The notes under the pieces: generated by a model
What the model was told of the DNA's origin: nothing
The model's database searches: none
What the model saw: the letters and a program-made list of their open reading frames with translations, nothing else
Position numbers and translations under genes: made by a program
Shown here: in pieces, positions 3 through 47,833 of the stretch
Position numbering within the stretch: the stretch's first letter is position 1
How the letters are laid out: each line of letters opens with the position of its first letter
Source: Minisyncoccota bacterium
GTDB taxonomy: Bacteria; Patescibacteriota; Minisyncoccia; Phycocordibacterales; JACRKE01
Length of the DNA: 64,000 bases
Direction: 5' to 3'
Assembly: GCA_041660505.1 (NCBI GenBank)
Contig: JBAZWG010000002.1
Span: 868 to 64,867 of the forward strand

Positions 3-158
3 CGTTGCCGACACATGTCCCGTGTCGCACTCCGCAACCAACCCGGCCTCTACGAACGCACCTGCGCCAAGTGCGGTAAACCCATAAGCACGCCATACGC
101 TCCAGACCGGCCGGAGATTGTGTATTGCGAAACATGTTACCAACAGGAGGTTGTATAA
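3..158 (+). CDS. 3' end (partial, window edge) of a Cys-rich zinc-ribbon protein; paralog of the C-terminal module of the 4440..6152 protein
   Basis: Frame-3 translation gives ...CRHMSRVALRNQPGLYERTCAKCGKPISTPYAPDRPEIVYCETCYQQEVV*, with stop TAA at 156-158. This matches the repeated module ...YAP(E/D)xP..VYC..CYQ.EVV at both ends of the 4440..6152 protein. GC is noticeably higher than in the full-length copy. Confidence 0.5.
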   Translation, partial: RCRHMSRVALRNQPGLYERTCAKCGKPISTPYAPDRPEIVYCETCYQQEVV

Positions 159-2338: not shown

Positions 2339-3676
2339 ATGGAAAGAACATATATCAAGGATCTTGGCCAACAAATTGGCCAGGAAGTGCTAATTAAAGG
2401 CTGGGTTAACGGGCGACGCGATCAAGGCAAGTTGGTCTTCTTCGACTTTCGCGATATGAGCGGACTTGTACAGGGAGTAGTGCTTCCTAAAAGCTCGGCG
2501 ATGGATACGGCTAAGGACATCCGAAATGAATTTGTGGTAAAGGTAGAGGGGGTTGTAAATAAAAGGGCGGAAAGAAATATTCAAGCCGGACGCAAAAATG
2601 GCGACATAGAAATTGAGGTAAAGAAGATTGAGGTCCTGGCTGCGGCAGAGGCTTTGCCATTCGACATGTCATTCGAGAGTTTTAATTTCGATTTAACGAC
2701 ACAGCTTGATCACCGCGCCTTAATGCTCCGCCACCCGCGCTTACAAGCGATATTCAAAGTGCAAAGCGTCATCATAGATTCCTTCCGGGAATACATGAAG
2801 AGTCAGAACTTCTTTGAGTTCCAAGCTCCGTCTATCACTCCGGCCACTGCGGAAGGGGGCGCGGAGGTCTTTCAGGTTAATTATTTCGACAAGAAGGCAT
2901 ACCTTTCTCAATCTCCGCAACTGTATAAGCAGATTGTGATGACAGCTTTCGAGAGGGTCTTTTCGGTAAATAAAATCTTTCGCGCAGAGCCGAGTGCTAC
3001 CACCAGACATCTGACCGAGATTGTTTCTCTTGATGCCGAGATGGCATTCATCGACTCTTGGCTTGACGTAAGAGATATGTCAGAATCAACCGTGCGCTAT
3101 ATTCTCAAGGAGGTGAGTACCCGATGCGCAGATGAGTTGGCCATCCTTGGTGCCGAAATTCCAACCATGATTGACAAAACACCCACCCTGTCACTTACGG
3201 AGGTGCAAGAGAAAATATTTAAGGCCAGTGGCCGCGACTGTCGCGGTGATAAAGACCTTAATCCGGAAGATGAGCGGGCAATATGCGAAATTATTAAGGA
3301 AGAGACCGGTTCAGATTTCGTCTACGTCTATGGTTATCCGACTCGCCAGAAGCCCTTCTATGTCTACCCTAATCCGGAAAATCCAGAATTTAACGAGGGG
3401 ATGGACCTTCTCTGTCGCGGCGTGGAGTGGCTCTCCGGCGGACGTCGCATCAACGACTACAAGCAGCTTATGCAGCATGTAAATGAGTGGAACATGGACC
3501 CGGAGAAAATTTCTATGTTCCTGGAGGCCTTTCGCTACGGGGTCCCGCCAGAAGGCGGGTTTGCGTTCGGAGCAGAGAGACTTACGATGCAGATATTGGG
3601 ACTCAAGAATGTCCGAGAGGCCTCAATGTTCCCAAGGGACATGAATCGGATAGATACATTATTAAGCCAGGAGTAA
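2339..3676 (+). CDS. aspS: aspartyl-tRNA synthetase, archaeal/type-2 (short, probably non-discriminating)
   Basis: 445 aa with an N-terminal OB anticodon-binding fold (KGWVNGRRDQGKLVFFDFRD). Class II motif 2 FRAEPSATTRHLTE and motif 3 GGFAFGAERL. Overall collinear with archaeal AspRS rather than the ~590 aa bacterial form. Confidence 0.85.
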   Translation: MERTYIKDLGQQIGQEVLIKGWVNGRRDQGKLVFFDFRDMSGLVQGVVLPKSSAMDTAKDIRNEFVVKVEGVVNKRAERNIQAGRKNGDIEIEVKKIEVLAAAEALPFDMSFESFNFDLTTQLDHRALMLRHPRLQAIFKVQSVIIDSFREYMKSQNFFEFQAPSITPATAEGGAEVFQVNYFDKKAYLSQSPQLYKQIVMTAFERVFSVNKIFRAEPSATTRHLTEIVSLDAEMAFIDSWLDVRDMSESTVRYILKEVSTRCADELAILGAEIPTMIDKTPTLSLTEVQEKIFKASGRDCRGDKDLNPEDERAICEIIKEETGSDFVYVYGYPTRQKPFYVYPNPENPEFNEGMDLLCRGVEWLSGGRRINDYKQLMQHVNEWNMDPEKISMFLEAFRYGVPPEGGFAFGAERLTMQILGLKNVREASMFPRDMNRIDTLLSQE

Positions 3677-4413
3677 TGCCGCAATTCGCCGTCAAAAATG
3701 AAAAATTCGAGGGACCGCTCGGGCTTTTGCTTACCTTGATCACCGAACGCAAGATGCATATTTCGGAAGTTTCTTTGGCCGAGATTGCCGACACTTATAT
3801 TTCTTACGCGTCTAAGCTCGAGGAGTTCCCGATACACGAATCAGCCGAGTTCTTACTCGTCGCCTCGACACTCATGCTTATCAAATCGCGTTCGCTCTTG
3901 CCCGGCATAGTCATAACAGACGACGAGCAGAGCGAGATAAAAAATCTTGAGGAGCGCTTGAGGTTATACGCAATATATCAAGAGGCAGGCAAGAAAATTT
4001 CTGAAGAGTTCGGGGCTAGAGAATTACTATTACCATATGAACGTAAAGAAACTGTTATATTCGCACCGCCCGCAGACGGTTCGCTATGGCCAACAGGGTT
4101 GTCTAGAATAGTCATGAACCTGCTTAATGCCATACCAACTATCGCGCCTATCCCGCAGACGACAATCAAGAAGATAATGTCGCTGGAGGAGGCAATGCAA
4201 GGTCTGCTCACGCGCGTCACGCAGGGGATTAAACTGTCGTTTAGAGAAGCTCATGAGGGCAAGCACGGGCCGGAGCATAAGCTAAATATTGTTTTAAGCT
4301 TCCTAGCTCTGCTCGAATTAATGAGGAGAGGCAAAATAAGCGTCGAACAGCACAGCACCTTCCATGACATACTTATCCAACCGGAAGAAGTAAGCACACC
4401 GATATATGGATAA
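3676..4413 (+). CDS. scpA: segregation and condensation protein A (ScpA)
   Basis: Start reassigned to ATG 3676, which overlaps the aspS stop (TAATG), with AGGAG 3 nt upstream. N-terminus MPQFAVKNEKFEGPLGLLLTLITERKMHISEVSLAEIADTYISY is the canonical ScpA kleisin N-terminal motif. The longer ORF-track N-terminus (from 3487) is rejected. Confidence 0.8.
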   Translation: MPQFAVKNEKFEGPLGLLLTLITERKMHISEVSLAEIADTYISYASKLEEFPIHESAEFLLVASTLMLIKSRSLLPGIVITDDEQSEIKNLEERLRLYAIYQEAGKKISEEFGARELLLPYERKETVIFAPPADGSLWPTGLSRIVMNLLNAIPTIAPIPQTTIKKIMSLEEAMQGLLTRVTQGIKLSFREAHEGKHGPEHKLNIVLSFLALLELMRRGKISVEQHSTFHDILIQPEEVSTPIYG

Positions 4414-4439: not shown

Positions 4440-6152
4440 ATGAACCGAGAAAATAAATCCTGCCAGAATTGTAAACAAAGCTTCGTAATAGAACCGGAGG
4501 ATTTCGCCTTTTACGAGAAGATAAAAGTTCCTCCGCCCACTTTCTGCCGTGAATGCCGCAGGACGCGTAGACTATTGTGGCGAAACATTCGTACGCTTTA
4601 TCGCGGCTCTTGTGCGCTTTGCGGACAGGCTACAATATCGATGTACGCACCAGAGAGCCCTTATGTCGTATATTGCCGCACCTGCTGGTATTCCGACAAG
4701 TGGGACCCGACGAGCTATGGGCGCGATTACGACTTCTCTCGACCATTCTTCGAACAATTTGGTGAATTACTCCGTGTCGTGCCACGCGTTGCGATACTAT
4801 ATTACGGTAATCCTGTTAACTGCACTGCTTCTAACTCGCTCCTTGATAGCAAGAATTTGTACATGTGTTATTCGGGTATTTTTAGCGAGGACTGTGCATA
4901 TTCGCAAAATTTAGACCAATCCAGAAGCTCCTTTGATTGTCTCGATGCAAAAGAGCTGGAGCTTTGTTATGAAAATGTCGATGCCACCAAAAATTACAAT
5001 TCGCACCACCTCGTACATACGCGCAATTGTCTAGAATCATCTTTCCTTTACGATTGCTCAAACTGTCAGAACTGTTTTATGAGCAGTAATTTGCGCAATA
5101 AACAGTATGTGTTTCGCAATAAGCAATACAACAAAGCAGACTATGAACTTGCAATCAAGGAATTAAATACCGGCACCATAGCCACTATTGAGGCACTGCG
5201 TACTGAATTTAGGCAGATGATCAAGGGAGCATTGCATAAATATGCCGATATAAACAAATCTTCAAATTGCACAGGAGATATGATTGACAGCTCAAACAGC
5301 GTTCGCCAGTCGTTCAATGTTTACAACGGCGATAATCTTAAATACTGCGATCGACTATTACCCGGCCATAAAGATTCTTATGATGTTATGGGCGGCAGGG
5401 GTTCGGAATTACTGTATGAAGGGATTATTTGCGGGTCAGGATCCAACACTATTCATTTCTTCAATTCTTCCGACCAAGCTCGCGAAACAGATTACACAGA
5501 CTGGTGCATGGATGTTTCTAATTTATTCGGCTGCGTGTCTTTGAGAAAAAAGAAATATTGCATATTAAACAAGCAATACTCGCAGGGGGAATATATCGCT
5601 CTGCATAAAAAAATTATAGAACACACTACCCAGACCGGAGAGTATGGGGAATTCTACCCTAAAGAAATCTCACTTTTTGCATATAATGAGACGTTGGCTC
5701 AAGAATACGACCCTCTCACAAAAGTAGAAGCTCTCGCAAAAGGTTTTAGGTGGCGAGACCCCGACACCAAGGATTATAAAGTTACGCTCCCAACGCAAAA
5801 CCTCCCGGAGTCAATAGATGAGATTGATGACAACATCATTAACGAGACCATTGGTTGCGCGCATGAAGGAAAGTGTAACGACGGGTGTACTACTGCCTTT
5901 CGAATAATACCAACAGAACTTTCCTTGTATCGCAATATGCGACTTCCCATACCGCGTTTATGCCCAAACTGTCGACACGTAGAAAGACTTTCGTATCGCA
6001 ATCCATTCTATCTTTGGCACCGACAATGCATGTGCGATAAAGCTCATTCTCATCATCAAGGTCATTGCTCGAATGAATTTGAAACAACCTACGCCCCTGA
6101 TCGGCCGGAGATAGTTTATTGTGAACAGTGTTATCAAAATGAAGTTGTCTAA
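4440..6152 (+). CDS. Cys-rich protein with duplicated zinc-ribbon modules at both termini and a Cys/Asn/Ser-rich repetitive core; function unknown
   Basis: 570 aa. N-terminus: CQNC..FCRECRRTRRLLWRN..LY..CALCG...YAPESPYVVYCRTCW. C-terminus: CNDGC...CPNCRHVERLSYRN..LW..CMCD...YAPDRPEIVYCEQCYQNEVV. These are two copies of a C-x2-C...C-x2-C...YAPxxP..VYC..C module. It sits between scpA and scpB. Confidence 0.6.
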   Translation: MNRENKSCQNCKQSFVIEPEDFAFYEKIKVPPPTFCRECRRTRRLLWRNIRTLYRGSCALCGQATISMYAPESPYVVYCRTCWYSDKWDPTSYGRDYDFSRPFFEQFGELLRVVPRVAILYYGNPVNCTASNSLLDSKNLYMCYSGIFSEDCAYSQNLDQSRSSFDCLDAKELELCYENVDATKNYNSHHLVHTRNCLESSFLYDCSNCQNCFMSSNLRNKQYVFRNKQYNKADYELAIKELNTGTIATIEALRTEFRQMIKGALHKYADINKSSNCTGDMIDSSNSVRQSFNVYNGDNLKYCDRLLPGHKDSYDVMGGRGSELLYEGIICGSGSNTIHFFNSSDQARETDYTDWCMDVSNLFGCVSLRKKKYCILNKQYSQGEYIALHKKIIEHTTQTGEYGEFYPKEISLFAYNETLAQEYDPLTKVEALAKGFRWRDPDTKDYKVTLPTQNLPESIDEIDDNIINETIGCAHEGKCNDGCTTAFRIIPTELSLYRNMRLPIPRLCPNCRHVERLSYRNPFYLWHRQCMCDKAHSHHQGHCSNEFETTYAPDRPEIVYCEQCYQNEVV

Positions 6153-6160
6153 TTTAATCA

Positions 6161-6200
6161 GCTCCGACGCTTTGGTCGGAGCCCCGACTGCAACGTCGGG
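6161..6200 (+). terminator. two tandem GC hairpins downstream of the 4440..6152 gene (terminator-like; no U-tract)
   Basis: gctccgac-gctttg-gtcggagc followed directly by cccgac-tgcaac-gtcggg. Confidence 0.3.
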
Positions 6201-6208
6201 GCAAGAAG

Positions 6209-6217
6209 TGGTATAAT
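6209..6217 (+). promoter_or_regulatory. extended -10 promoter TGgTATAAT
   Basis: Perfect TGnTATAAT 10 nt upstream of an ATG at 6228 (a 16-codon ORF MEVRILEYKIGLDELK) and ~45 nt upstream of the 6265 ORF. The same GTGGTATAAT box appears at 35381-35390. Confidence 0.45.
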
Positions 6218-6264: not shown

Positions 6265-6582
6265 ATGAACTCAAATAATAACATGGAGAGAACAGCACTA
6301 TTCTACATGGCGAATGCGCACCCAGAGATTGGGAGGATGTTGAACTATGCCGAAAAGGGCGAGACGATTGCAGCCGAAGCGGCGCAACAACGCGCCCTTG
6401 CTATCGTTGATACGATACTTGCGCGGCACGATATCGCTCCCGCAGGTAGGGAGGAGTGGCGTGCCGTAAAAAGTCTTCTGATGGGTTATACGATCCTTGA
6501 TGAGTACGCACGCAAGGTATTGCGGAACTTTGCCGAACCGTTTTCTTACAAATTTATGTATGAATACGCACATGGAAAGTAG
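6265..6582 (+). CDS. hypothetical protein
   Basis: ORF-track 6244..6582 begins at a TTG; the first in-frame ATG is 6265 (alternative 6283). No recognisable motifs. The 3' end overlaps the scpB start by 11 nt. Confidence 0.35.
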   Translation: MNSNNNMERTALFYMANAHPEIGRMLNYAEKGETIAAEAAQQRALAIVDTILARHDIAPAGREEWRAVKSLLMGYTILDEYARKVLRNFAEPFSYKFMYEYAHGK

Positions 6583-7117
6583 CGTGATACAACTCGACCG
6601 GAAAATAGAGGCTCTGCTTTTTATGAAAGGCGAGCCTATGGGGATTGCGGAGCTTATGAAGCTTTGTTCTGTCGGAGAAGGGGAGCTTGAGATGGCCATT
6701 GCAGAACTAATTACGCGACTTGAGGCGGGCGCGACGCGGCTCACACGCACGGAGGATACTGTGGCGCTCACGACCAAGCCGGAGCTTTATGAATTCTTGC
6801 AGGAAGTCTTGAAGCTGGAGCGGACAGAGCCTTTGACCAAATCCCAGCTCGAAGTTCTCTCGATAGTCTTGTACGAGCATCCCGTAAGCGCGGCCAAGGT
6901 AGAATATGTGCGCGGGGTTAATTCTCGCTACAGAATCCGTGCGCTTATGCTCCGCGGGCTTATCGAGCGCAAAGCAGACGAGAACGACGCTCGAGTTTCT
7001 CTCTATGTGCCGACCATCGAGCTCCTCCAACTCCTAGGAATCACGGATGTGACACGATTGCCGGATTATGCTTTAATTAAAGACAAACTTGCCGCTGTGG
7101 TACAAGACAAGCATTAG
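6572..7117 (+). CDS. scpB: segregation and condensation protein B (ScpB)
   Basis: Start reassigned to ATG 6572. MESSVIQLDRKIEALLFMKGEPMGIAELMKL is the ScpB winged-helix N-terminal signature (IEALLF..GEP); 182 aa. Confidence 0.8.
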   Translation: MESSVIQLDRKIEALLFMKGEPMGIAELMKLCSVGEGELEMAIAELITRLEAGATRLTRTEDTVALTTKPELYEFLQEVLKLERTEPLTKSQLEVLSIVLYEHPVSAAKVEYVRGVNSRYRIRALMLRGLIERKADENDARVSLYVPTIELLQLLGITDVTRLPDYALIKDKLAAVVQDKH

Positions 7118-8201: not shown

Positions 8202-9164
8202 ATGATAGAACGCTTTACTGTAAAGATGCTTAGAGGATCGGCAGAGCAATTGAAATTCAAGTGTATTGTTGAGCCTAAGTTCGGCCATGTCGGTTATATA
8301 GAAAATAATACCGGCGAGAGATTCTTTTTTAAGTTATCAGCTCTGGATATAAATCCACTGGGCGCTTCGAAGATTGCGACTGATAAAGATTATACGCAAT
8401 TCCTGCTGGAGAAATTCGGTTATCCTGTGATATCCACAGAAACATTCTTCTCTGACGAATGGTGCAGAATAAATAATACCCAGAATAATTTAACTGCCGC
8501 ACTGGAATACGCAGAAAAGGTTGGTTATCCGCGCATAGTTAAACCCAACAGCAAGGGCCAGGGTAGGGGAGTGGCCAAAGTATATTCCGACGAAGAGCTC
8601 AAATTGGCACTTATTAATATTTTCGCAATAGATAATATCGCGCTTATACAGCCTTGCGTTCCGGGTACTGATTATCGCGTTGTAGTGTATAAAGATAAAG
8701 TTGTAGCGGCATATTCTCGCACGCCACTTATTATATTCGGCGACGGAATAAAAAGCATACGAGAGCTCTTGCCTGCATATGACATACCACTGCCAACAAT
8801 CGTATCGAGGATAAAGCGCGAGTATAATTTGACATTGGATTCTATCCCAAAAAATGGCGAGAGATTACAGCTTCTGGATAATGCCAACCTCTCGACCGGA
8901 GGCCAAGCCAGAGACATGACAGATACTATATGCGATAACGCGAAAGAGTTAGCCATAAAAGCGGTAAAAGATCTGGGGCTCAATCTGGCGGGCGTTGATA
9001 TTTTAACCACAGACGATATCGAGAAGAGCATGGTAGAATATGTAATTGTAGAGGTTAATTCGATGCCGGGCATGGAACATTATTCGGCACTAGGTCCGGA
9101 CCAGCTTGAGCGTACTCGCAGATTATACATAGATATAGTGCAAGATTATTTTAGCCATGATTAG
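8202..9164 (+). CDS. ATP-grasp ligase, D-Ala-D-Ala ligase (Ddl)-like with a short divergent N-terminal domain
   Basis: ASKIATDKDYTQFLLEKFGYPV resembles the Ddl ASALSMDKLRSKLL..GLPV segment. YPRIVKPNSKGQGRGV matches the ATP-grasp P-loop region. C-terminal YVIVEVNSMPGMEHYS resembles Ddl EANTSPGMTSHS. It lacks the Ddl N-terminal HGxxGEDG motif. It occupies the slot between mraY and ftsW usually held by murD. Confidence 0.65.
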   Translation: MIERFTVKMLRGSAEQLKFKCIVEPKFGHVGYIENNTGERFFFKLSALDINPLGASKIATDKDYTQFLLEKFGYPVISTETFFSDEWCRINNTQNNLTAALEYAEKVGYPRIVKPNSKGQGRGVAKVYSDEELKLALINIFAIDNIALIQPCVPGTDYRVVVYKDKVVAAYSRTPLIIFGDGIKSIRELLPAYDIPLPTIVSRIKREYNLTLDSIPKNGERLQLLDNANLSTGGQARDMTDTICDNAKELAIKAVKDLGLNLAGVDILTTDDIEKSMVEYVIVEVNSMPGMEHYSALGPDQLERTRRLYIDIVQDYFSHD

Positions 9165-36094: not shown

Positions 36095-38326
36095 CTACTT
36101 CCCGTACATATATAATGAGTAAATCTCATTGGCCGACAACTCGCGGTTATAAATACGCACGTCATCGATTCCGCCCTTCCACGGTTCAGCCGGCGCGCCA
36201 TAATCACCAATATACATATTTACTCCGCCATCGTTATATACTCCGCCAAGATTCTTGTTATCGCTACCCACAAGTCTACCATCTATATATAAATACTGTG
36301 CGGAGTTTGTTTTTACACAGACCATATGATGCCATTTACCGTCCTTATACACATTGCTTACTGCCGGGGACGCAATGGTCGCTGCAACTCTTAGACTGCA
36401 ATACATTTGAGTACCGCCACTATCCCCCATCAATACTGCACTACCAGCAGAGTATTTTCCCAGAATAAAATAAGCGGTGGCGCCAGGGACTTGCCCTCTA
36501 TTGAACCAAGCGGAATATGTCCAACTATTCGCATTGGTTGGCCCGAAGTTGTTGCCCAGATTTACAGTATTATTAGCGCCATTCTTTGGGAAATACAACC
36601 CTTGTCCAATTTTCCCTGCAATAATACTTGTCCCTGTCACTGTCCCATTTTTCCCATTTCCACTTTTGTCTAACATTACACCGGTAGTCCTGTCCACAGC
36701 ATCAAACGTCCACCAGCCGACGAGACCATTTGTGGTGCTTTGAGCCGAGACTAGCGCTGGACTGGCTGTGACCTTCGCGCCACCGAGTGTATATAATGAG
36801 TAAACTTCATTGGCCGACAAGGCGCGGTCGTAGACACGCATGTCGTCGGCTTGCCCTGAAAAAATACCGTCTGACTCGGCGTTACCAAATACTCCAAAAT
36901 AGTAAACACTGTTTGTTATATTAGGGGTTACCGTGGTCGGAGTACCGGATATCGCCTGTAGTACACCATTCACATATATCTGCGTGGTTGTATTTGCCGC
37001 GCCGGGAGATTTAACAATGGTCACTAAATACCATTTATTTGCCGTTAATGCACCTGCGGCTGTTGCGACAGAATTGCCGGAAGCGTATTCGACCGAAACA
37101 GCCCCTGCTCCGCGCAAATTAAAGAAGGTGCCTATAGCCGCACCAGCACCACCGTTACGATCACCCGTAAAAAGACCTGCGCCGGATGTTGTTGTATCTC
37201 TCAATTTCACCCACTGCGATAAGGTTATAGACGCATTACCAGAGATGCCAGAATTATTAGCACCAAGTAGATAACATTTCTGCCCATTTGTGGTCGCTGT
37301 TGGCGTAAGCGATATTCCTCGACTTATCTTCGCGGTTACAAATTGCGGCGTGCAATTCGTCCCGCTCTGTGTTGTAAACATATGACCATTACCAGTCTTA
37401 TCTATTGTATAAGTACTCCCTGAATCTGGGGTATCGAAAGTCCACCAGCCGACAAGGCCATTCGTGGTACTCTGCGCGGAAACTTTCGTCGGGCTTGCCG
37501 TAATCTTACTTGTACCGAGCTGGTACAGAGCTTTAATCTCGCTCGCAGACAATGCACGACTATAAATGCGCACGTCGTCGATAGAGCCGTTAAAGTTATA
37601 TCCTCGTGCGTTAACTCCGCCTGGTCCCCATGGGCCGTCTGCAGCAATATCCAATTCTCCATCCGGCGCATTTTGCGAACCGGTTATCGTTGTCGGGGTC
37701 TGGGCAATTCCGTCGATGTATAAGGTTATTGTTGTACCGTTTATTGTTTCGACCGCATGATGCCATTGATTATCTCCATAGGCACCGGCGCTCGTAGAAA
37801 AAAAGTCTGTACCGTTATAGTACTCCGCAGATACTGTATTATTCGTATTCATCAATAGACCCCAAAGATAGCGGTTGGGAGCATTATTAAGCGTATCTTT
37901 TCGGAGAATCGACATTTCACCTGCCGCATTCCCGCTCGTTTTAAACCAAGCCGAAATCGTAAGCGTAGAACCCAGCCGCAGGCTTGCGCTATCGGGCACG
38001 GCGACGTATTGCGATGCACTAATTGCGCTCCATGAAGCATTAGACGACAGAGCTTGGCCGATCTTGCCCTGCACTTTACTCATGCTTGTTAATGTCCCAT
38101 GATTTGCATATAAGCTTTTATCCCTCACTTGCGAACCTGTTACGTATCCTGAATCAAACGTCCACCAGCCAACAAGGCCATTCGTCGTGCCCATCGCGCC
38201 CAGAGCCTGCGCGCTCGAAACTGCAGACGCCTCTGCCTTGCCGGCCAAAAATAGCGCAGGCAACAAAAGCAAGAGCGCGAGGAACCTAGTTAAAAGTTTA
38301 ATGCTTACGAGTGTCACAATTTTCAA
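36095..38326 (-). CDS. secreted protein with four LamG-like (concanavalin A-like lectin/glucanase, Laminin_G_3-type) domains
   Basis: Signal peptide. Four repeats of TNGLVGWWTFD ... DDVRIY(S/D/N)RALSA(S/N)EI..LY. 743 aa. Starts 18 bp downstream of the giant gene stop, so likely the same operon. Confidence 0.8.
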   Translation of the reverse strand: MKIVTLVSIKLLTRFLALLLLLPALFLAGKAEASAVSSAQALGAMGTTNGLVGWWTFDSGYVTGSQVRDKSLYANHGTLTSMSKVQGKIGQALSSNASWSAISASQYVAVPDSASLRLGSTLTISAWFKTSGNAAGEMSILRKDTLNNAPNRYLWGLLMNTNNTVSAEYYNGTDFFSTSAGAYGDNQWHHAVETINGTTITLYIDGIAQTPTTITGSQNAPDGELDIAADGPWGPGGVNARGYNFNGSIDDVRIYSRALSASEIKALYQLGTSKITASPTKVSAQSTTNGLVGWWTFDTPDSGSTYTIDKTGNGHMFTTQSGTNCTPQFVTAKISRGISLTPTATTNGQKCYLLGANNSGISGNASITLSQWVKLRDTTTSGAGLFTGDRNGGAGAAIGTFFNLRGAGAVSVEYASGNSVATAAGALTANKWYLVTIVKSPGAANTTTQIYVNGVLQAISGTPTTVTPNITNSVYYFGVFGNAESDGIFSGQADDMRVYDRALSANEVYSLYTLGGAKVTASPALVSAQSTTNGLVGWWTFDAVDRTTGVMLDKSGNGKNGTVTGTSIIAGKIGQGLYFPKNGANNTVNLGNNFGPTNANSWTYSAWFNRGQVPGATAYFILGKYSAGSAVLMGDSGGTQMYCSLRVAATIASPAVSNVYKDGKWHHMVCVKTNSAQYLYIDGRLVGSDNKNLGGVYNDGGVNMYIGDYGAPAEPWKGGIDDVRIYNRELSANEIYSLYMYGK

Positions 38327-38344: not shown

Positions 38345-41300
38345 TTACGGCGTCGTACTCGTCGCATTTGGGTCTATTACGTTAACTATTCTTATCTGTT
38401 CGATGGCATTATTACCTGAATTATCTACTGCGTTATATTTAACCTCATGTGTACCGGCTAATGTTGTGTCTATCTGATCGCCTGTCGTGACTATGCCGAG
38501 ATTATGATCTACGTTGTCTGTAACTGTTGCGCCCATGTCGCTGTAACTCGAGCCCATGTTTATTGTAGATGGGTTGAGGCCGAGCATTGTGATGACCGGA
38601 GCCTCTGTGTCTGCTGGCGGGGTCGAAGTACCAGCAGGCGCCCCGGCTGGGGCAGTTCCTGCCACGCACTCCCCTGCTACGCTGGCGACGAGGCCACTTG
38701 ACACCTTCAAACAATACGGATTGCCTGTCGTGTCGTCATATAATGTGACACCTATCGGGTTTACTGACGAGCCAACCTTCATACTCTTTAACACGTTTAA
38801 GTCTTGTACCACCAATCTGCCGTTCTCGTCCAAGCTCCAGTTGCCCGAGGCAGAAGCCAGACTCTTTATATTGACTATTGCTTGCCCTTGCAGGTCGAGT
38901 ACGCGCGCTGTTGCGAGCTTCATATAACCCGTACTTTGATCTACTACCCAGTCTGAACTCACGGCGCCGTCTGCAATACCCGAAGAAATATTCTGATAAC
39001 CAAGATTGACGAAGACAGTAATACTGCCTGTCTGTGAATAAGAGCCGTCGGGTAGAGTGCCGCTCCAAGGCTCAAGGGCGATACCAACAGTCTGGCCGGA
39101 GGTCGTCGCCTTCATACCGATACCTGCCGCCGATGAAAGCGTGATGTAGTCACCAACCGCAATATCCCCTCCTTCAAGGTTAACTTTAGTCGGCACGCGA
39201 CCAGAGAGAGCCACGGGACGCGAAGTACTCGCCGTAAACTCCGAACTTGCACCACCGAGCAGAACACCGGGGTCAGTAGATATGATTCCTATTACCGGTA
39301 TGATAGTAGAACTTGCCTTTCTCACAACAAGAGTCGAGGTAGAAGTATCCAACGATACTAAGTCACCCGCCGAGATAGTCTCGTCCGTTATTTTGTAACT
39401 CTCTGCCAGGTCCACGGTTTGCGTCGAAGCTCCTCGAGAATAAATCTGTCCTGCCGGTACAGAACTACATGCTACCGTAGCGGAACTCGTTGACACGCAA
39501 AGACCGGAACCAGTCCCTGTTCCGTAAACTTCGAGCTTCGCCCCTGGCGTCGTCGTCCCGATACCGACGTTGCCCCCCTGTGCCTGAAAAGCGATATTCT
39601 GATTATATCCCGTGTTCTGCTGTATTCCTTGAAATTCAAAGACATTTGAGGCATTGGACATTGTAACCTGTAGTTGCTTTTGTGTTGTCCCCTGCTGATT
39701 TCCAAACTCCATAAGTTTAACGCGGTCTGTTGCAGTCTCGCTTACTGGAGAGATAACTCCATTCACGCTTAGCTTGTAGTTAGGTGTGGTTGTCCCGATG
39801 CCTACGTTGCCCGCGTTTGTTATTGACAACTTCTCCGAGCCTTGTACCGCTAACCCCATGGTTGCTCCTGTACCTCTTGCGTCTAAGAACGCTTTACCAG
39901 CATTACTCGTGTATATAGACAGACCAGTAGCGGCAGCAGCGGAGAAGGTGTTGTTGCCAATTACCAATCCATAAGGGCTATCATCATCTCCTGTTATTTT
40001 TAGCAGTTGTGTTGCGGCTGTCCCACCATCAAGAATTTCAAGTTTTGCCGAAGGACTCGTCGTCCCGATGCCGACGTTGCCATTCTGTTGTATTCTCATC
40101 TTCTCAGCATTAGCTGGTGAGAATGAGATATAGTTTCCAGTACCAGCAGAGTAGTTGGTTTGGAAATCAAGTGAATTATCACCAGCGTCATTGAAGGTTA
40201 TTTTGGCATACTGTCCCGCTACTCCTGCGCCCAAGTTATCCAAAACGATTTGCGGATTGCCGCGAGTCCCCTCGTGAATTGAAAGTTTAGCCCACGGAGT
40301 TGTGGTTGCAATTCCGACATTACCATTCGTATCTATCATCACTTGGTCAGTATTTGAATAGGAGTCTGACCCTTTTCCAAAAAACATTGTCCCATTACTA
40401 CTCTGTATGTAGCGATGATGCAAACCAGATACGGCATCGGTATCAGAAAGATAAAACATTGGGGCGATATTGGCGATATTTAACAAATATGCTGGCGTCG
40501 TCGTCCCGATACCGACGTTGCCGTTTCGGAGCACTGTGAACGATGTCGTTGTTGCCGTTAATGTTGAGCTGGCCACCGTGAATATCGGCTGGGTGCCGTC
40601 AACATTGCTGTCGCTTGTGTTGGCGGAGACAGAGAGTTTGGCCCATGGGGTTGTGGTGCCGATACCGACTAGCCCGCCGGAGGTGATACGCATGGCTTCG
40701 GTCATTGCGGTGCTATTGTTGGTACTGAAAGCTAAGTAGCCAAGTTGATTGTTTGTTGTAGAGTTTTCTTTAAACCCAACGATGCTGGCGAAATTTCTGA
40801 TCGATGAGGGGATTAATGGTACATCGTCTTTATAACCACCGAAGGCGATAGAGCCACCGGTATCTACAGCTTGGGAATTATTCGATCGTATCAATAATTG
40901 TCCCGTAGCGGTACGCGTCGGGACGGTGCTCGAGCCATAGATATCAAGCAGAGCTAGCGGCGTCGTCGTGCCGATGCCGACATAGCCACTGCGGAGGATT
41001 GTAAATAATGAATTGGTGGCGCTGGCGGTAGAGCTCGCAACGACAAAGAGCGGGGTGGCCATGTTGGCAGAGGAGTCGGTCGTATTGCCTTGTATCGAGA
41101 GTTTAGCAAATGGTGAGGTAGTGCCGATGCCGACAAAACCATTAGTGGTGAATTGGCCTGTGCTTGTGGTGGTGGCGTTGCCGTTCACGGTCAAAACAGA
41201 TGTTGATGTTGTGCCTGTTGTAGTGAGGTTGGCGTTGGTGCCAGAGGAACCAATGAGAACGCCACCGGCAAAGTTGGCGGCGACGCCGTTCGGGTTGGTA

Positions 41301-44300
41301 ATTGGATAGCTGACAATAACAATACCGGAACCGCCACCGCCACCCGCGCCTCCTTCTGTAGCACCGCCACCTCCACCGCCCGAGTTAGTGGTTCCGGCAG
41401 TACCAGCACCAGAAGTACCTCCTGCGCCACCGCCACCAAGCCCTCCAGAACCTCCGCTTTGAAGATCGCTGGAGCCACCACCACCGCCACCATAGTAGAC
41501 GGTGGTTACACCATCGCTAATAGCGGTAGTTGTGCCTATTCCGCCGACGCCGGCGGCTGCATCTGACCCATTACTACCAGTAGCACCCGCTCCGCCACCA
41601 CCACCGCCACCATTATTCTGTGCCGCTCCGCCACCATTATAGCCTTGCCCCGAAGTACCGTTACCGCCTGATTGACTGCCGGCACTGGCAGCACCGCCAC
41701 CAGAACCACCATCGCTACCAGCCCAAGTGAACGCTTGAGAACCTCCCTTACCTCCTCCTGTGGCCACTACAGTACCAAACTGCGAATCGCCTCCGTTAGT
41801 ATTAGTGCTACCGGTAGCACCCGCTCCGCCAGCACCGACTACTACTGTTATGCTTTGAGAAGGCGTCACCGCGTATGAATATCCGTTACTAGGTCCGCCG
41901 CCAACAACTCCTCCTCCACCTCCTCCACCGCCATCAACCCACGAAGTAACGCCGTTCTTGCCTCCACCGCCACCACCTGCCACCACGAGCACCTTAACGC
42001 TGGTTACACCACTACTTGGAACGGTAAAAGTGACAGACCCGGTATTGGTAAATGTATGAACCCTGTAGGTCTGTCCACCTGACGTATAGGTAGTGACGGT
42101 TCCTTGATTGTCTGTAGCCGATGGCGTTGAGCCTACTGCATTAACATCGAGTGAATATGCCGGCGTCACAACGCCGATGCCGACGAGGCCTGCGGACGTG
42201 ATAGTTGTTGTTGCAGTTCCTCCAAACCACGACTGATCGTTGACGGAAAGTTGAGTTGTCGAAGCATTAGTAAACGTGGCTTGGCCGGTGACTGCGAGCG
42301 TGCCGGATAATGTCGTTGCGCCGGTGACGGAGAATGTGCCACCAACGGATGTGTCGCCGGAGACAACGAGAGCTGATGTGCTTGCTGTGCCCGTCACCGC
42401 CAGATTCGTCGTCGTGGCGTTGGTGCCTGTGGCATTCACGAAGGTGAAGTTTTGGAGGGTGGTGCTACCTGTGAGCAAGATGTTGGTGGCGGTGAGGAGA
42501 CCGTTATTAAGAAGCGTAAGCCTCTCGTTGTTCGCGAAGTCGGCGAAGGCGAAGAGTCTGCCGGTGTCATTGGTGCCGAAGCCGTTGACGGCGAACTTGG
42601 CGGATGGCGAGGTTGTGCCCACGCCGACACGGTCGGAATATGAACTGCCGGTGCCGTCGGCAAGAGCGTAGACCGTGAGGGTGGAGGTAGCACCAATGCC
42701 AGCCGAGAAGCCGAGCTCGGTACCGGAGGCGAGCGTTGTCGAGGCGAGAGGCATATTGATCCAATCAATGAGACCGGCGTCGGCCTCGAAGGATTGCGAG
42801 CCGGTGATGAGCTGGGCAATGGTGGTTGAGCCGGTGTTGTCTATAGAGAAGAGCGTGGTGGAGGCACTGTCTGTGACTTCGAAAGCTCGGCCTGATGACG
42901 TGGCTGTGCCCCAGATGGTAACCTTGGCATATGGCGAAGTGGTGCCGATGCCGACGTTGCCTGTCGATGAAATGTAGATGGAAGAGGTGGCCTGTGCTAC
43001 TCCCGCATCGTTACCGACGAGCAAGAAGCCTTTCGTAAGATTGAGAGTGGTGAGAAGTGAGGATGTGGCAGTTGAATACAATCCGCCGGTAGAAGTAAGT
43101 GATGCAAAACCGGATGTGTAAGAAGAGAATGTCGCGTTGCCGGAGACTATGAGCGCGGATGTGCTTGCGATGCCCGTCACCGCCAGATTTGTCGTTGTCG
43201 CATTCGTGCCCGTGGCGTTTGCGAAAGTAAAGTTCTGGAGAGTAGTTGACCCCAGTGTAAAGATATCGCCGAGATAATTCACAGAGAATTTGGTGGAGGA
43301 TGCGACTTTCATATCTAGCAACATACCGGAGAAACCGGCTAGGGCATCGGTGCCGATAACTGTGCCCGTGGTGGAGAGTTTTTCGACAGAAAGTAGGGCG
43401 TATGGTGATGAGGTACCAATGCCCAACAAGCCTTCGGCGGTCACTGCGCCGAGAACCGTACCAGAACCATTTTGCCATTCTTGCAGATCTGCTGTTTGGC
43501 TTGTGATGCCTTGTACGATCAAACCTTTTTCACCGACCTCAGCAGTGCTGACGTGAAGTTTAGCGAGCGGTGTGGCATGCGAGGTGGCGGTATTGCCGAG
43601 AACAAGGGAGCCTATGAAGATCCAATCTGATTGGCTGGCGCTTATATTGAGTTTGTAATATCTATAGTTCTGTGCTGTACCTAGGGCATATGTTCTGATT
43701 TCACCAGAGCTCCAAGCGGGAACATTTGTTTGTGTATTCAAAACAGTCCATGCCGAATTGTCGTTTGAACCCTCGAATGTCCAAGTTTTTGGCCCATAGG
43801 TGTAATAAGTGGTATACGAGTCTGCCTGGATTTTATATTGATTTACAGTTGTATAGGTTCCCAAATCAATTTTCAACCAACCTGAAGTACCATTAACACA
43901 CCACGCCGTCGAAGAATCTGAATCAAAAGATTGCCACGCAGAACAGTTGACCTCTGTAGACGCACTTGCCACATACGGCGAAGGGGCGCTGTCGCTCGTC
44001 AAGAATGTCGGGATCTGAACATTTGCCGGCGTAGAACCAATAGCTAAGCGAGAGTTTATCGAGTCAAAATACATGATGCTGTTATTCTGACTGACTGCTC
44101 CATTAGCACCAATATACGGGACAGAGCCAGAAGTAAGCGCGGTAAGCGAGAGCGTACCGCCAACCGTTGAATTGTCGCTGACGATGAGCGCAGAAGTTGA
44201 TGCTGTACCCGTGACTGCAAGGTTGGTGGTTGTCGCATTGGTACCCGTAGCATTGGCGAAAGTGAAGTTCTGCAATGTAGTTGATCCCAACGTAAAGATG

Positions 44301-47300
44301 TCGCCAAGATAATTTACGGAGAACTTGGTGGATGAGGCGACTTTGAGATCAAGTAACGTACCGGTAAATGTTGATAATGAATCAGCGCCAATGACGGTGC
44401 CTGAAGAAGATAGATGTTCGATAGAGAGACGAGCATATGGGGTTGAAGTGCCCATTCCGATCAGGCCGTTATAGAATGATGTGAAGATAGGGGCGGAACT
44501 TGTGGCGTTTTGTAATGAAAATATGGAGATACTTTGTGAACGAGAGGTCGTAGCGTTGAGCGAGAAGAAGCCGTTCACATTCAGACTGTTCCAAAGTCTG
44601 GTATTCCCCGCCACTTCGACATTGCCGGATGAGAAAATGTCGCCGGAGTAAATTGATGATGCGCCGGAGTCGGCCTCGGCAAGAGTACTGCTTGAGTAAG
44701 CGAAGCCGATCATGTCAAGAGTACCAGCCAGCATTGTGCGCGCCAATGATGAATATTCAACAGATGAAAGTGCGGTCGTACCGCCATCATTTGTTCCGGC
44801 GATGGCATAAACATAACCATTTACAACAAGAGATGTGTGATATTCCCTAGCACCGCTAAATGGCGTAGCGGTGAGCGTCGTCCACGCGCCGAGAGTGCCA
44901 TTTGCATATATCTTGGCATATTCGATGGAGGAAAGGTTGCCGCCGCCGATACCGCCCATCGCGTACAAATATCCGTTTGCCACCACGGCGGATAACGCTC
45001 CTCTGGCTGTATTAAGAGGAGTTGCGGTGAGCGTCGTCCACGCGGCCAGCGTGCCGTCGCTGTTTATCTTCGCTGACTCTACCGACGATATGGACGTTCC
45101 ACTTGTTATTCCACCAATTGTATAAATATATCCTCCAACAACAACTGACGCGTGAATATTTCTGGCTGCGTTAAGCGGTGTCGCCGTTAGGGTCGTCCAT
45201 GTACCAAGCGTACCGTCACTATTTATCTTCGCATATTCGACGGTAGCGGTATCGCTTATGCCGGTACGACCGCCCATAACATATACATAACCGTTAGAAA
45301 CTACGGAGGCGTGCGCGTATCTGGTGATATTTAATGATGCCGTCGTTTTCCACGCACCGAGCGTGCCGTCGCTGTTTATTTTTGCGTATTCGACAGTATT
45401 AACCTGTACTCCACCTGTACCATTACCACCGATGGCGTAGACATATCCGTTGGCGGCGATAGAACTGTGCTGATATCTTGTGATGGTAAGCGATGACGTT
45501 GTTGTCCACGCACCAAGTGTGCCATTACTGTTTATCTTGGCATATTCGACAGATGAAAGCCTGGTACCGTTGTATCCACCGATGGCGTAGACATATCCGT
45601 TGGCGGCGACTGATGTCTGTTGGTAACGAGTCGTGCCTAGAGATGATGACGTTGTCCACGCGCCAAGTGTGCCATCATTGCCGGAGTTGAGCGCAATTGT
45701 TTTCTGCGCAACCGATACCGGATACACAGGGGATGAAGTCCCGATGCCGACGTTGCCGCTATTCTGCTGGACAACGAATTGCGATGTGCCAACTGTTAAG
45801 CCGCCCGTTGAGAATGTGGAAGTGGCGGTGGTGGAAGTAATTGCGAGCACGCTCGTTGTACCGATTGATGCGGTAAAATTCTGGAGCGTGGTACTGCCCA
45901 GCGTAAAGATATCACCGAGATAATTCACCGAGAACTTGGTGGAGGATGCGACTTTGAGATCGAGCAATAGGCCGGAGAAGCCGGTGAGCGCATCTCCCGC
46001 GATAAGCGTGCCGGCAGAAATCCCGTCGACGGAGAGCTTGGCGTAGGGCGTTGAGGTACCGATACCGACGTTACCGGCAGTACCTTCTATCACCATGCTG
46101 GTTTGCGGTGTTGCAAACATGTCTCTCGGAGTAGTTAGGAACCGAATTGCTGTTGGTACGGTGTCACCATTGTCTTCGGCTTGTTTCGCGGCGACAATAT
46201 CCAAGACTCGCGCATAACGACCCGCAGACGGATAATCTATTACATAGTTATATGAAAATGTGGCTCTGTCGTCCGCCAAATAACTCGGCAAACTCGTTCC
46301 TCCATATCCTCTGAATATTTTTATATCTTTACCATAAACGTCTAAACCTGCAGTGGGACTTTCGGTCCCTATTCCTACGTTGCCGCCGCGTGTTACAACA
46401 AAGTTAGTTGTTGTAGCAATATCGGTTGAGGATGATATCAAGAAGAGCGGTGCGATTAGGTCTAGATCGGAAGTGTTGCCACTCACAGAAAGTTTCGCGT
46501 AAGGCGAAGTGGTACCGATGCCGACGAGGCCAGTATCGGTGATGGTCATCCGCTCGGCACTGGCGGTTACGAATCGAAGGAAGTCGTCATCACCGGCGGT
46601 GATGTAGGTGGTCTGGGCGGCGTTGATGACACCGCCTAGGCCTTGCCAGACACTGTTGTCGCCGAAGCCTTCGAACTGGTGCGTCGTTGTGTTGTAACGG
46701 ATCTGGCCGGCAAGCGCCATGCCCGGTCTCTGGGCTGTTGTGCCAATTGGGAGATGGACTGCGTCGGTGGCGTAGATGTCGAGACTCGTGGCCGGTGTTG
46801 AAGTGCCAATGCCGATGCGACCGCTTGATGACTGGACGATGAATTGGCCGGAACCGATATTAAGGCCGCCTGTCGCGAACGTCGATGTAGCTGTTGTCGA
46901 TGTCGCAGTGAATGACGAGGCGACCACTTCGCCCATAACAGAGAGCGGTGCATATGGCGAGCTGGTGCCGATGCCAACATTGGAATTGCGGTAGATGTTG
47001 GAGCCGTTCACCGTCCAATTGGAGAATACTGCCGCAACACCATTCTGGAGTAATGAACCAGTGATGTTGATATCGCCCGCCACATCGAGCGCATGTTCGG
47101 GAGAAGTAGTGCCAATGCCGACAAGGCCGGTGAAGATGGCGCCAGTGCCGGTGGTGGTGCCCGTAAGTGTCCCGCCACCAAGCGGCAGATACCCGGAGAT
47201 TGTGCCCCCGCCGGTGAAGGTGCCGGAGATGGTGGCATTGGTGATGGTAACGCCGTTCAATGAATCGATGCGATTAGAGAGACTGATGGCGCGATAGTTG

Positions 47301-47833
47301 CCGGCATCGACAGCGGCGCCATGCGAAGCGTTGGCGTAGATGAGGGCTGTGAGTTTGTTGTCGAGCTGGTTCAGCTTGGTAGCCAAGTCACTTGATGTAA
47401 CACCGGAACTTGTTTGTTGGTAAATGATTGTTGGTTTGGTTGTTGTAACGGTTCTCGCGGGCGCACTGCCGATGACAGAAATCTTGCCCGCCAAACTATT
47501 GACTTGATCACGTAATGCTTGTATATCGCTGTTTACAGTTGTAGTTGACAGAGTATCAGATATCGTGGCAATGTCGGTGACTTTTTGACTGATAACAGGG
47601 GTGGTAACTGTGACTGTCGGAGAGGGCTTTTGGACCTGCGGAGAGAAGAAGGAGATGAGCGACGTTTGAACGCTATTGAATATGTCCCCTATCGTACTGC
47701 TGATGCTTGCCATATATTGGCTAGGTAGAGCCGTATATTCATTGACGAGGGAGGCGTGAGCTAGCGAAAAATTTGCAATAAAAAAGACGGTTAAAACCGC
47801 AAAGTAAACTACAAATTTTCGCACCGAATGCAT
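38345..47833 (-). CDS. giant secreted multidomain surface protein (3162 aa). It has tail-fibre-like GIGT repeats, a Kelch-type beta-propeller, a discoidin (F5/8 type C) domain, a Gly-rich domain, a tail-fibre-like C-terminal module and an Ig-like (DUF5011-type) domain.
   Basis: Signal peptide [27 protein letters not shown]. About 20 copies of G(N/L)VGIGT(T/S)(S/T)PxAKLxV. About 6 YVYAIGG Kelch blades (aa ~715-1060, nt ~44650-45690). Discoidin-like [31 protein letters not shown]...YRYYKL (aa ~1290-1415). Gly-rich [14 protein letters not shown]... (aa ~1955-2175, nt ~41320-41960). [19 protein letters not shown] module (aa ~2808-2990). C-terminal Ig-like [31 protein letters not shown] (nt ~38380-38610). 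No C-terminal TM or sortase signal. Confidence 0.85.
   Translation of the reverse strand: [3162 protein letters not shown]
42300..46000. repeat. three to four near-identical ~250-300 bp direct repeats inside the giant gene
   Basis: Copies around 45860-46000, 44160-44350, 43140-43330, and a partial copy at 42300-42480. They encode (G/M)LLD(L/M)[46 protein letters not shown]. They are potential recombination or size-variation substrates. Confidence 0.7.

Follow-up and report, generated by a model that had tools for sequence, protein, structure and literature searches.

A large Parcubacteria protein family with putative double-zinc modules at both ends of a predicted beta-solenoid core

We analysed a stretch of 64,000 nucleotides (nt) of DNA from a Minisyncoccota bacterium (hereafter the window) and focused on one gene, at 4440-6152 on the forward (+) strand, whose open reading frame (ORF) encodes a product of 570 amino acids (aa) with 33 cysteines. 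The gene is an intact, typical member of its family. We are nearly certain that this family, to which the 570-aa protein belongs as an ordinary member, is very large, ancient, undescribed and near-confined to the Parcubacteria/Paceibacteria (Patescibacteria). As to what the protein does, our best explanation as a whole, taking identity and mechanism together, is tentative, and we give it a probability of roughly 0.4.

A family of multi-copy proteins in Parcubacteria

Relatives of the 570-aa protein were abundant: at least 7,641 of 8,000 scored candidates were significant matches, with E-values against homologs down to 1e-240, and the names of the top matches were all "hypothetical". Almost all of the best 120 matches spanned the full length, at 46-59% identity, and most of them had 550-650 aa; the top matches had 550-600 aa, with 99-100% coverage and 47-60% identity. 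In an alignment of 118 sequences the mean column identity was 48% and the 570-aa protein was collinear over its full length. A scan of 1.84 billion cluster representatives gave 3,636 matches at E ≤ 1e-3, with 1,481 at E ≤ 1e-30. The 570-aa product is identical to MFA6006833.1 (locus tag WC764_03885) at NCBI, encoded on a contig of 72,712 bp, whereas the JGI gene call for the same protein is shorter, at 503 aa (P0001; 88% coverage). The 570-aa reading is the right one because the homologs align from residue 1.

To describe the range of the family we used the 80 best loci of at least 584 stretches encoding relatives in GTDB species genomes; individual loci are designated below by L and a number. 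Nearly all of these 80 loci belonged to lineages of the Parcubacteria: Nomura-, Giovannoni-, Lipton-, Jorgensen-, Staskawicz- and Sungiibacteria, Paceibacteria and Minisyncoccia. A few relatives, namely one "Burkholderiales" metagenome-assembled genome (MAG) and one "Woesearchaeota" protein, carry doubtful labels. No relatives were present among IMG/VR viral contigs, INPHARED GenBank phages or PLSDB plasmids, and no defence or phage model matched, the best PADLOC hit being spurious (Cmr7, E 0.007) and the PHROG hits having E-values of at least 0.045.

Half of the loci (40 of 80) hold 2-7 full-length copies within about 14 kb, and several MAGs contribute two loci, which gives at least 4-6 copies per genome of roughly 1 Mb. 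The median identity of a protein to its closest paralog at the same locus was 43%, compared with 58% to the most similar copy in a different genome, and for 98% of the proteins the copy in another genome was closer than the copy next door. Distinct subfamilies have therefore existed side by side from a time before the divergence of these lineages.

The first-pass annotation of the window, made by a model from the sequence alone, had not recognised the family, and our searches bore this out: it is covered by none of the Pfam and NCBIfam models, and the core and linker of the protein match no model at all. Nor did we find a relative in the PDB or a paper on the family. The best hit of a PDB search with the family profile was a LIM finger at an E-value of 0.77, and no description of the family was found in the literature. 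A match in BFVD was to a phage "putative zinc-ribbon domain protein" (E 6e-3).

Putative terminal zinc modules and a duplicated core

The two ends of the protein proved to be copies of one double-zinc module, as the first-pass annotation had claimed. Residues 3-86 matched residues 476-569 by BLASTP (E 4e-14, 29% identity), and HHalign aligned the family profiles of the N- and C-terminal modules with a probability of 99.7% (E 2.2e-26). The literal C-x2-C pattern given in that annotation is complete in the N-terminal copy but not in the C-terminal copy, in which two knuckles are expanded (C473...C483 and C530...C543).

The N-terminal module (aa 1-88; 4440-4703, +) has C8, C11, C36 and C39 as the candidate ligands of finger 1 and C58-x2-C61-x17-C79-x2-C82 as finger 2, and these regions gave sub-threshold matches to zf_Tbcl (aa 5-44) and zf_Tbcl_2 (aa 51-85), respectively. 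The C-terminal module (aa 466-570; 5835-6149, +) also gave a sub-threshold match to zf_Tbcl_2; its ligand sets are C473/C483/C508/C511 and C530/C543/C561/C564, and its expanded loops hold the extra C479 and C532 and His. A conserved Arg-rich helix joins both sites of the N-terminal module (C-x2-C-R-x2-RR-x3-RN, with R40, R43, R44, R48 and N49), and a related version, C-x2-C-R-x3-R-x4-RN, is found in the C-terminal module. With a median isoelectric point (pI) of 8.1-8.4, both modules are slightly basic.

The assignment of the ligands was supported by their pattern of loss in 399 homologs, where Cys ligands disappeared in sets of four (r 0.54-1.0 within sets and about 0 between sets). In 102 of these homologs (26%) C61, C79 and C82 were lost as a block while the surrounding sequence was kept, which argues that the sites are structural and not catalytic. 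All 16 module ligands are present in the 570-aa protein, as are the core residues C197, C206, C209, C212, C356, C365 and C374. We infer that the metal of the four terminal Cys4 sites is zinc and that its role is structural, based on the ligand patterns and by analogy with the CxxC-x17-CxxC domain of Methanosarcina small proteins, which binds zinc as determined by inductively coupled plasma mass spectrometry (PMC12704099).

Comparison with known fingers placed this last domain nearest to finger 2. On the 570-aa protein, zf_Tbcl_2 (PF23477) scored 18.7 bits against a cut-off of 27, and TIGR04272, the NCBIfam "CxxC-x17-CxxC domain", scored 17.1 bits against a cut-off of 36, both sub-threshold. 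Of 37 family members, 19 matched PF23477 with E-values of 0.1 or lower, down to 1.2e-5, and one homolog had been named a CxxC-x17-CxxC domain by JGI. N-terminal finger 2 has the exact C-x2-C-x17-C-x2-C spacing of that domain, and the C-terminal module keeps C543-x17-C561-x2-C564 behind its expanded first knuckle, with the signature ...(Y/F)xPxxxxP(V/I)VYCxxC. In PF23477/TIGR04272, however, the finger is a stand-alone domain of about 40-60 aa whose established function is limited to zinc binding, whereas here it is one of four sites in a protein of 570 aa. Finger 1 (aa 5-44: CxxC, strand, helix, CPxCR) corresponds to positions 4-44 of the 48 positions of PF13451 (zf_Tbcl, "probable treble clef domain"), itself an uncharacterised Pfam family. 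With the family consensus PF13451 reached an E-value of 1.3e-4 (22.3 bits against a gathering threshold of 24), and it matched 16 of 37 members at E ≤ 0.1; the 570-aa protein itself was not reported for PF13451 in the Pfam scan.

The presence of two consecutive zinc sites per module also recalls the LIM/GATA-type C4 fingers (CRP 1ctl, PINCH-1 LIM), and the C-terminal finger of LIM domains has the local C-x2-C-x17-C-x2-C arrangement with YC..CY. Homology to LIM domains was rejected, as the E-values for Pfam LIM (1.3) and for PDB LIM chains (0.4-1.3) are at chance level and a C2HC first site is lacking. A regular-expression search of the 570-aa protein for the CxxCxGxG repeats of the DnaJ cysteine-rich domain found none.

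The core between the modules is itself an internal duplication. Half A (aa 96-245; 4725-5174, +) and half B (aa 246-400; 5175-5639, +) were aligned by HHalign with a probability of 99.9% and an E-value of 1.7e-35, and each comprises a helix, units of about 12 residues, a Cys-rich cap and a helix, with the cap end (N/K)LR(N/K)KxY...NKQYxxxxY. Profile autocorrelation peaked at a lag of 12 in both halves, and this 12-residue register substantiates the periodic core noted in the first-pass annotation, which had overlooked both the core's own duplication and the multi-copy arrays as the norm of the family. In half A the opening helix is followed by about seven predicted 12-residue beta-solenoid rungs, the cap C197-x8-C206-x2-C209-x2-C212-F...NLRNKxY and a helix; its family consensus reads SKNCYLSFSVVE / SEDVLYSKAVDK / SKDCVDSLNVKK / SELCYENVDSEK / CYNSKFLQESEN / CLDSAFLFDCKN / CQNCFLSVNLRN. 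In half B a helix and predicted solenoid rungs lead to the cap C356...C365-x8-C374-ILNKQYSxxEY and a long helix.

The AlphaFold2 model, computed with 118 homologs, had a predicted local distance difference test score (pLDDT) of 88.1 and a predicted template modelling score of 0.86. Its core, half A included, showed the short-strand pattern of a narrow beta-solenoid; pLDDT was 83-98 in half B and lower, at 55-66, in aa 150-225. Based on this model, the core is predicted to be a beta-solenoid.

Behind the core lies an acidic linker (aa 401-465; 5640-5834, +; median pI 4.5), in which the stretch YGEF(F/Y)PxExSxFAYNETxAQEYxPLTK...G(F/Y)xWxD is conserved more strongly than any other in the family. 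The highest mean information content, 2.70 bits, was found for aa 401-440. By region, the fingers, caps and linker had 2.4-2.7 bits, and the solenoid bodies were the most variable, with 1.6-1.8 bits. The core is, like the linker, acidic by pI. Hydropathy over 19 residues peaked at 0.84, and there was no signal peptide or membrane segment; the protein is soluble. No conserved catalytic constellation was found, the conserved polar residues tracking the repeat pattern.

Foldseek searches of the PDB with both structure models returned only left-handed beta-helix enzymes (LpxD, LpxA, GlmU and gamma-carbonic anhydrase) at E-values of 2e-3 to 0.1, and the superpositions had TM-scores of at most 0.2 and root-mean-square deviations of 10-20 Å. 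Such a result indicates "beta-helix" and no more. These enzymes have the stacked coils of short strands that are predicted for the family; they differ in that the period of the family is 12 and not 18, and in that the family has no hexapeptide motif and no catalytic residues. A solenoid with coils of 12 residues is known in the antifreeze protein of Tenebrio, and the fixed places of Cys, Ser and Asn within the family's 12-residue repeat are reminiscent of the repeat of that protein. The Tenebrio protein is disulfide-bonded and secreted, whereas the family protein would be cytoplasmic and zinc-associated.

The second copy, the scpA-scpB position and neighbouring genes

The window edge truncates an upstream paralog, of which the 3' end (51 codons and the stop) is present at 3-158 (+). 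Read in frame 3, nt 3-155 translate as RCRHMSRVALRNQPGLYERTCAKCGKPISTPYAPDRPEIVYCETCYQQEVV, ending in ...YAPDRPEIVYCETCYQQEVV directly before the stop codon. This 51-aa fragment is 48% identical to the C-terminus of the 570-aa protein (aa 510-570; E 2e-16) and 42% identical to the N-terminal module (aa 39-86), so the earlier claim that a second copy ends at the edge was correct. In a multi-copy family with old tandem paralogs such a copy is to be expected.

The closest database matches of the fragment were three short ORFs of 61-63 aa. A stand-alone family of mini-proteins was considered and rejected, as the short ORFs that were examined (L081 and L082) are C-terminal pieces of frameshifted full-length genes. 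Frameshifts break many genes on these two contigs (L081 is ENA contig_617) into short ORFs, among them the family gene and the genes of S4 and RpoA, and artefactual "proteins" of 44-63 aa have entered the protein database in this way.

The copy at the edge had also been described as compositionally distinct. Its excess in guanine plus cytosine (GC) is real: GC was 0.563 in nt 1-158 and 0.411 in the last 158 nt of the ORF, and the fragment itself had a GC of 0.575 and a third-position GC of 0.61, compared with 0.425 and 0.33 in the equivalent 153 nt of the ORF. The difference is also large for the family, since in 38 multi-copy loci the median copy-to-copy range was 0.056 and 0.15 was reached in one locus only. 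Nevertheless, the fragment is inside the range of its contig, where 8% of the 158-nt windows reach 0.563. The GC of genes across the window is 0.42-0.55, and the ORF, at 0.431, is the fourth lowest of 43 (z = -1.4). Because the paralogs of the family are ancient, no foreign origin is needed for the edge copy, and we read the GC gap as ordinary within-genome heterogeneity on a very short sample.

The position of the gene between scpA and scpB was confirmed by Pfam, but the significance that the first-pass annotation had implied for it was not, as scpAB was nearby in just 1 of the 80 related loci. The gene for segregation and condensation protein A, scpA (3676-4413, +), matched Pfam SMC_ScpA at 3.5e-19 (70.2 bits against a gathering threshold of 24.6) and NCBIfam ScpA models at up to 9e-31, and scpB (6572-7117, +) matched Pfam SMC_ScpB at 2.7e-33 (115.3 bits against 27.4) and TIGR00281 at 5e-21. 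This kleisin pair thus consists of bona fide flanking genes, and the zinc-finger protein has no similarity to either product. In L054, scpA and scpB are contiguous and the family genes come next, ahead of mraY and ftsW; the window has the same scpAB-mraY-ddl-like-ftsW-murG region, with its family gene displaced by one place. A search of the flanks for direct or inverted repeats that would mark an insertion found none. A local rearrangement, in a locus long occupied by the family, accounts for the scpA/scpB position, which is no family trait. A functional link to ScpAB was rejected on the same count of loci. Of the features stressed in the first-pass annotation, the duplicated ends, the periodic core and the second copy are hallmarks of the family; the split of scpA-scpB and the GC difference are incidental.

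The true start of scpA is likely the ATG at 3676, judging from the onset of the domain match, and this start shares one base with the stop of the aspartyl-tRNA synthetase gene (3674-3678 of the window). The start of scpB is likely the ATG at 6572, where the end of a gene for a 99-aa protein overlaps it by 11 nt (6572-6582). These overlapping junctions on both sides of the 570-aa gene suggest translational coupling.

Directly 3' of the stop of the 570-aa gene, RNA folding identified two adjacent GC-rich hairpins without a U-tract (6163-6202, +; -28 kcal/mol, z = -3.5), and none of 200 shuffled sequences was as stable. The sequence of the second hairpin occurs only once in the window. An extended -10-like motif, TGGTATAAT, follows the hairpins at 6209-6217, and given this motif the 99-aa gene and scpB may have their own promoter. 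Rfam and tRNA scans gave no match at the locus.

The conserved 99-aa gene itself (WC764_03890; 6283-6582, +; NCBI start 6265) sits between the 570-aa gene and scpB. It has 28 homologs, with 53% identity to L057:8163-8462, and elsewhere in Parcubacteria it comes after a DUF5674 (PF18924) gene. In L057, L085, L086 and L087 it adjoins family copies, and in L083 and L084 it is present without an adjacent family copy. The 99-aa protein is a possible partner of the zinc-finger family protein.

The neighbourhoods of family members across the 80 loci are diverse and consist of housekeeping genes. One recurrent arrangement was the block rpsD-rpoA-rplQ-rplM-rpsI-grpE-(1-3 copies)-paaX-like-dnaK-x-virD4-like, found in about 10 loci. 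In one group of Parcubacteria (L011, L018, L020, L021, L027, L037, L044 and L065) the classical grpE-dnaK-dnaJ genes are split by 1-3 family copies, a divergent PaaX-like regulator and a VirD4-like ATPase. The order virD4-like-dnaJ-(copy) was seen in at least three loci, and other neighbourhoods were (copy)-class II ribonucleotide reductase and ftsW-(copies)-murG, with CutA1 adjacent in seven loci. In L085 the order is virD4-like(+zf_Tbcl_2)-DUF5674-99-aa gene-(copy)-virD4-like-dnaJ-(copy). The zf_Tbcl_2 finger of this locus (CSLCGKQTTVPFKPEPGRAVYCKDC) lies on the tail of a soluble TrwB/VirD4/HerA-like ATPase (L085:2636-4612, +), and a finger of the same kind was weakly matched in the tail of the ATPase at L069:3892-5895. 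The family's own module hidden Markov models miss the finger of the L085 and L069 ATPases, so that it is shared at the Pfam level only. We treat this sequence likeness between the family and a VirD4-like ATPase as a lead.

Elsewhere in the window there is a compact cluster resembling the division and cell wall cluster, with mraY, a ddl-like gene, ftsW and murG, and two penicillin-binding protein transpeptidases and mreB lie further along. Between mraY and ftsW, the gene at 8202-9164 (+) encodes an ATP-grasp protein with D-Ala-D-Ala ligase and RimK-like domains. A giant ORF of 3,162 aa on the reverse strand (38345-47833, -) has Kelch repeats, Gly_rich_2, F5/8 type C (discoidin) and a C-terminal bacterial surface Ig-like domain, and is a putative surface protein of a kind typical for candidate-phyla-radiation bacteria. 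Directly downstream on the same strand (36095-38326, -), a protein of 743 aa with three Laminin_G_3 (concanavalin-like lectin) domains is probably a second surface or adhesion protein.

Proposed function and alternatives

Based on the architecture, we propose a cytoplasmic, non-enzymatic protein. It is built as a putative two-zinc finger module, two successive units of helix, predicted 12-residue-rung beta-solenoid and Cys cap, an acidic conserved linker and a second two-zinc finger module. The two mildly basic, Arg-rich finger modules may act as equivalent binding heads, held on a rigid, mildly acidic double-solenoid body whose variable surface would differ between paralogs. Their partner would most likely be nucleic acid, and otherwise a shared protein partner. 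We lean to nucleic acid because the heads are basic, because the fingers are of a C4 treble-clef/GATA-like type and because the same finger is found on a TrwB-type DNA-binding ATPase. The protein could then serve as a bivalent scaffold or bridge, possibly in mixed paralog assemblies. This mechanism, a scaffold with two finger heads that bind a macromolecular partner, is a speculation in which our confidence is low.

Several observations weigh against this proposal. The protein as a whole is mildly acidic (median net charge -4), which is unusual in nucleic-acid binders, and the usual partners of LIM-type double-zinc modules are proteins rather than nucleic acids. Eight further conserved Cys of the core (C176, C197, C206, C209, C212, C356, C365 and C374), for which the co-loss signal is weak, are left without an explained role. 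In addition, genomic context provides no firm partner, as the commonest neighbour occurs in at most 11 of the 80 loci, and context is weak evidence in this case because the genomes are related and the genes largely co-directional.

The unlikely alternative of a protein-protein adaptor or co-factor, tied to the DnaK/DnaJ/GrpE genes and a soluble TrwB/VirD4-like ATPase and using its zinc modules as LIM-like protein-binding heads, draws on the grpE-(copy)-paaX-like-dnaK-x-virD4-like block, on the loci with the virD4-like-dnaJ-(copy) order and the L085 arrangement, and on the weak LIM similarity. The window itself, however, is without dnaK, dnaJ, grpE or a virD4-like gene, no neighbour exceeds the count given above in these related genomes with their co-directional arrays, and the LIM matches are those of chance. 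We consider it quite unlikely that the protein is a bactofilin-like polymer, i.e., a beta-helical scaffold for cell shape or division made of co-assembling paralogs. The predicted beta-solenoid core and the multiple ancient tandem paralogs would suit such a polymer, as would the copies inside the mraY-ftsW-murG region (in the window, L054, L009, L019 and L042) and near mreB (in L009, L053, L055, L063 and L079), but there was no Pfam bactofilin match, the context evidence is as weak as that for the other alternatives, and the Cys caps, helices and finger modules that follow both solenoid ends would block the end-to-end stacking by which bactofilins assemble. Zinc ribbons and rubredoxins share their knuckle geometry, and the family has about 24 conserved Cys, four of them at aa 197-212, where three form a CxxCxxC motif, so that some of the clusters could in principle bind iron and transfer electrons or sense redox state. 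We regard a redox or iron-sulfur protein as improbable, given that the Cys of the core disappear one by one (r 0.16-0.31), which obligate ligands of a cluster would not do, that no ferredoxin or iron-sulfur Pfam family matched, and that the related CxxC-x17-CxxC domain bound zinc and not iron (PMC12704099). As a narrower suggestion from the Cys pattern, an iron-sulfur cluster site in the core is possible, with the co-loss signal there being weak.

It is likewise improbable that the family consists of exported host-interaction factors or effectors of episymbiotic bacteria, recruited by a VirD4-like coupling ATPase. This is a multi-copy family in a host-dependent lineage, and a VirD4/TrwB-like ATPase was within three genes in 10 of the 80 loci; however, the protein has neither signal peptide nor membrane segment, its multiple zinc sites suit the cytoplasm, the representative ATPase is without a membrane anchor, and the identity of about 58% between species reflects strong purifying conservation and not diversifying evolution. 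There is very little to recommend a left-handed beta-helix enzyme, either an acyltransferase or one like gamma-carbonic anhydrase. All Foldseek matches in the PDB were of that type (best E 2.3e-3), but their superpositions were as poor as described above, there was no Hexapep Pfam match, the repeat period is wrong for such an enzyme, and neither a conserved His triad nor another catalytic constellation is present. Equally hard to credit is a recently acquired or mobile gene that entered between scpA and scpB, the second copy upstream being of foreign composition. The pair is split here and contiguous in L054, only one of the 38 multi-copy loci has a GC gap as large as 0.15, and hairpins and a -10-like box lie 3' of the gene. 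On the other hand, flanking repeats are absent, the phage, plasmid, IMG/VR, PADLOC and PHROG collections do not contain the family, the GC of the gene and of the edge fragment is within what the contig offers, the paralogs are ancient and vertically conserved, and the L054 copies at the same scpAB-mraY-ftsW locus indicate long residence.

Many Parcubacteria, with genomes of roughly 1 Mb, keep several copies of about 1.75 kb each, up to seven per 14 kb, at about 45-60% identity across the lineage, and such a copy load is a large investment for a family that has no name, Pfam model, structure or paper. Its parts, C4 zinc fingers and a beta-solenoid, are known; undescribed so far are their arrangement, the two levels of internal duplication and the tendency to occur in several copies. 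The confident AlphaFold2 model makes the protein tractable for structural and biochemical study. Chaperone, DNA-translocase or division genes recur near family copies, and we speculate, as a rather unlikely extension of the proposal, that the family represents a Parcubacteria-specific cytoplasmic structural class of zinc-capped double beta-solenoid rods, whose paralog sets co-assemble or divide labour and bridge nucleic acid and/or housekeeping machines. If this speculation is correct, the family would constitute a core cellular system, so far overlooked, of a major lineage of mostly uncultured bacteria. Knowing what the protein does would close a considerable gap in our picture of the "dark" core proteome of the candidate-phyla-radiation bacteria.

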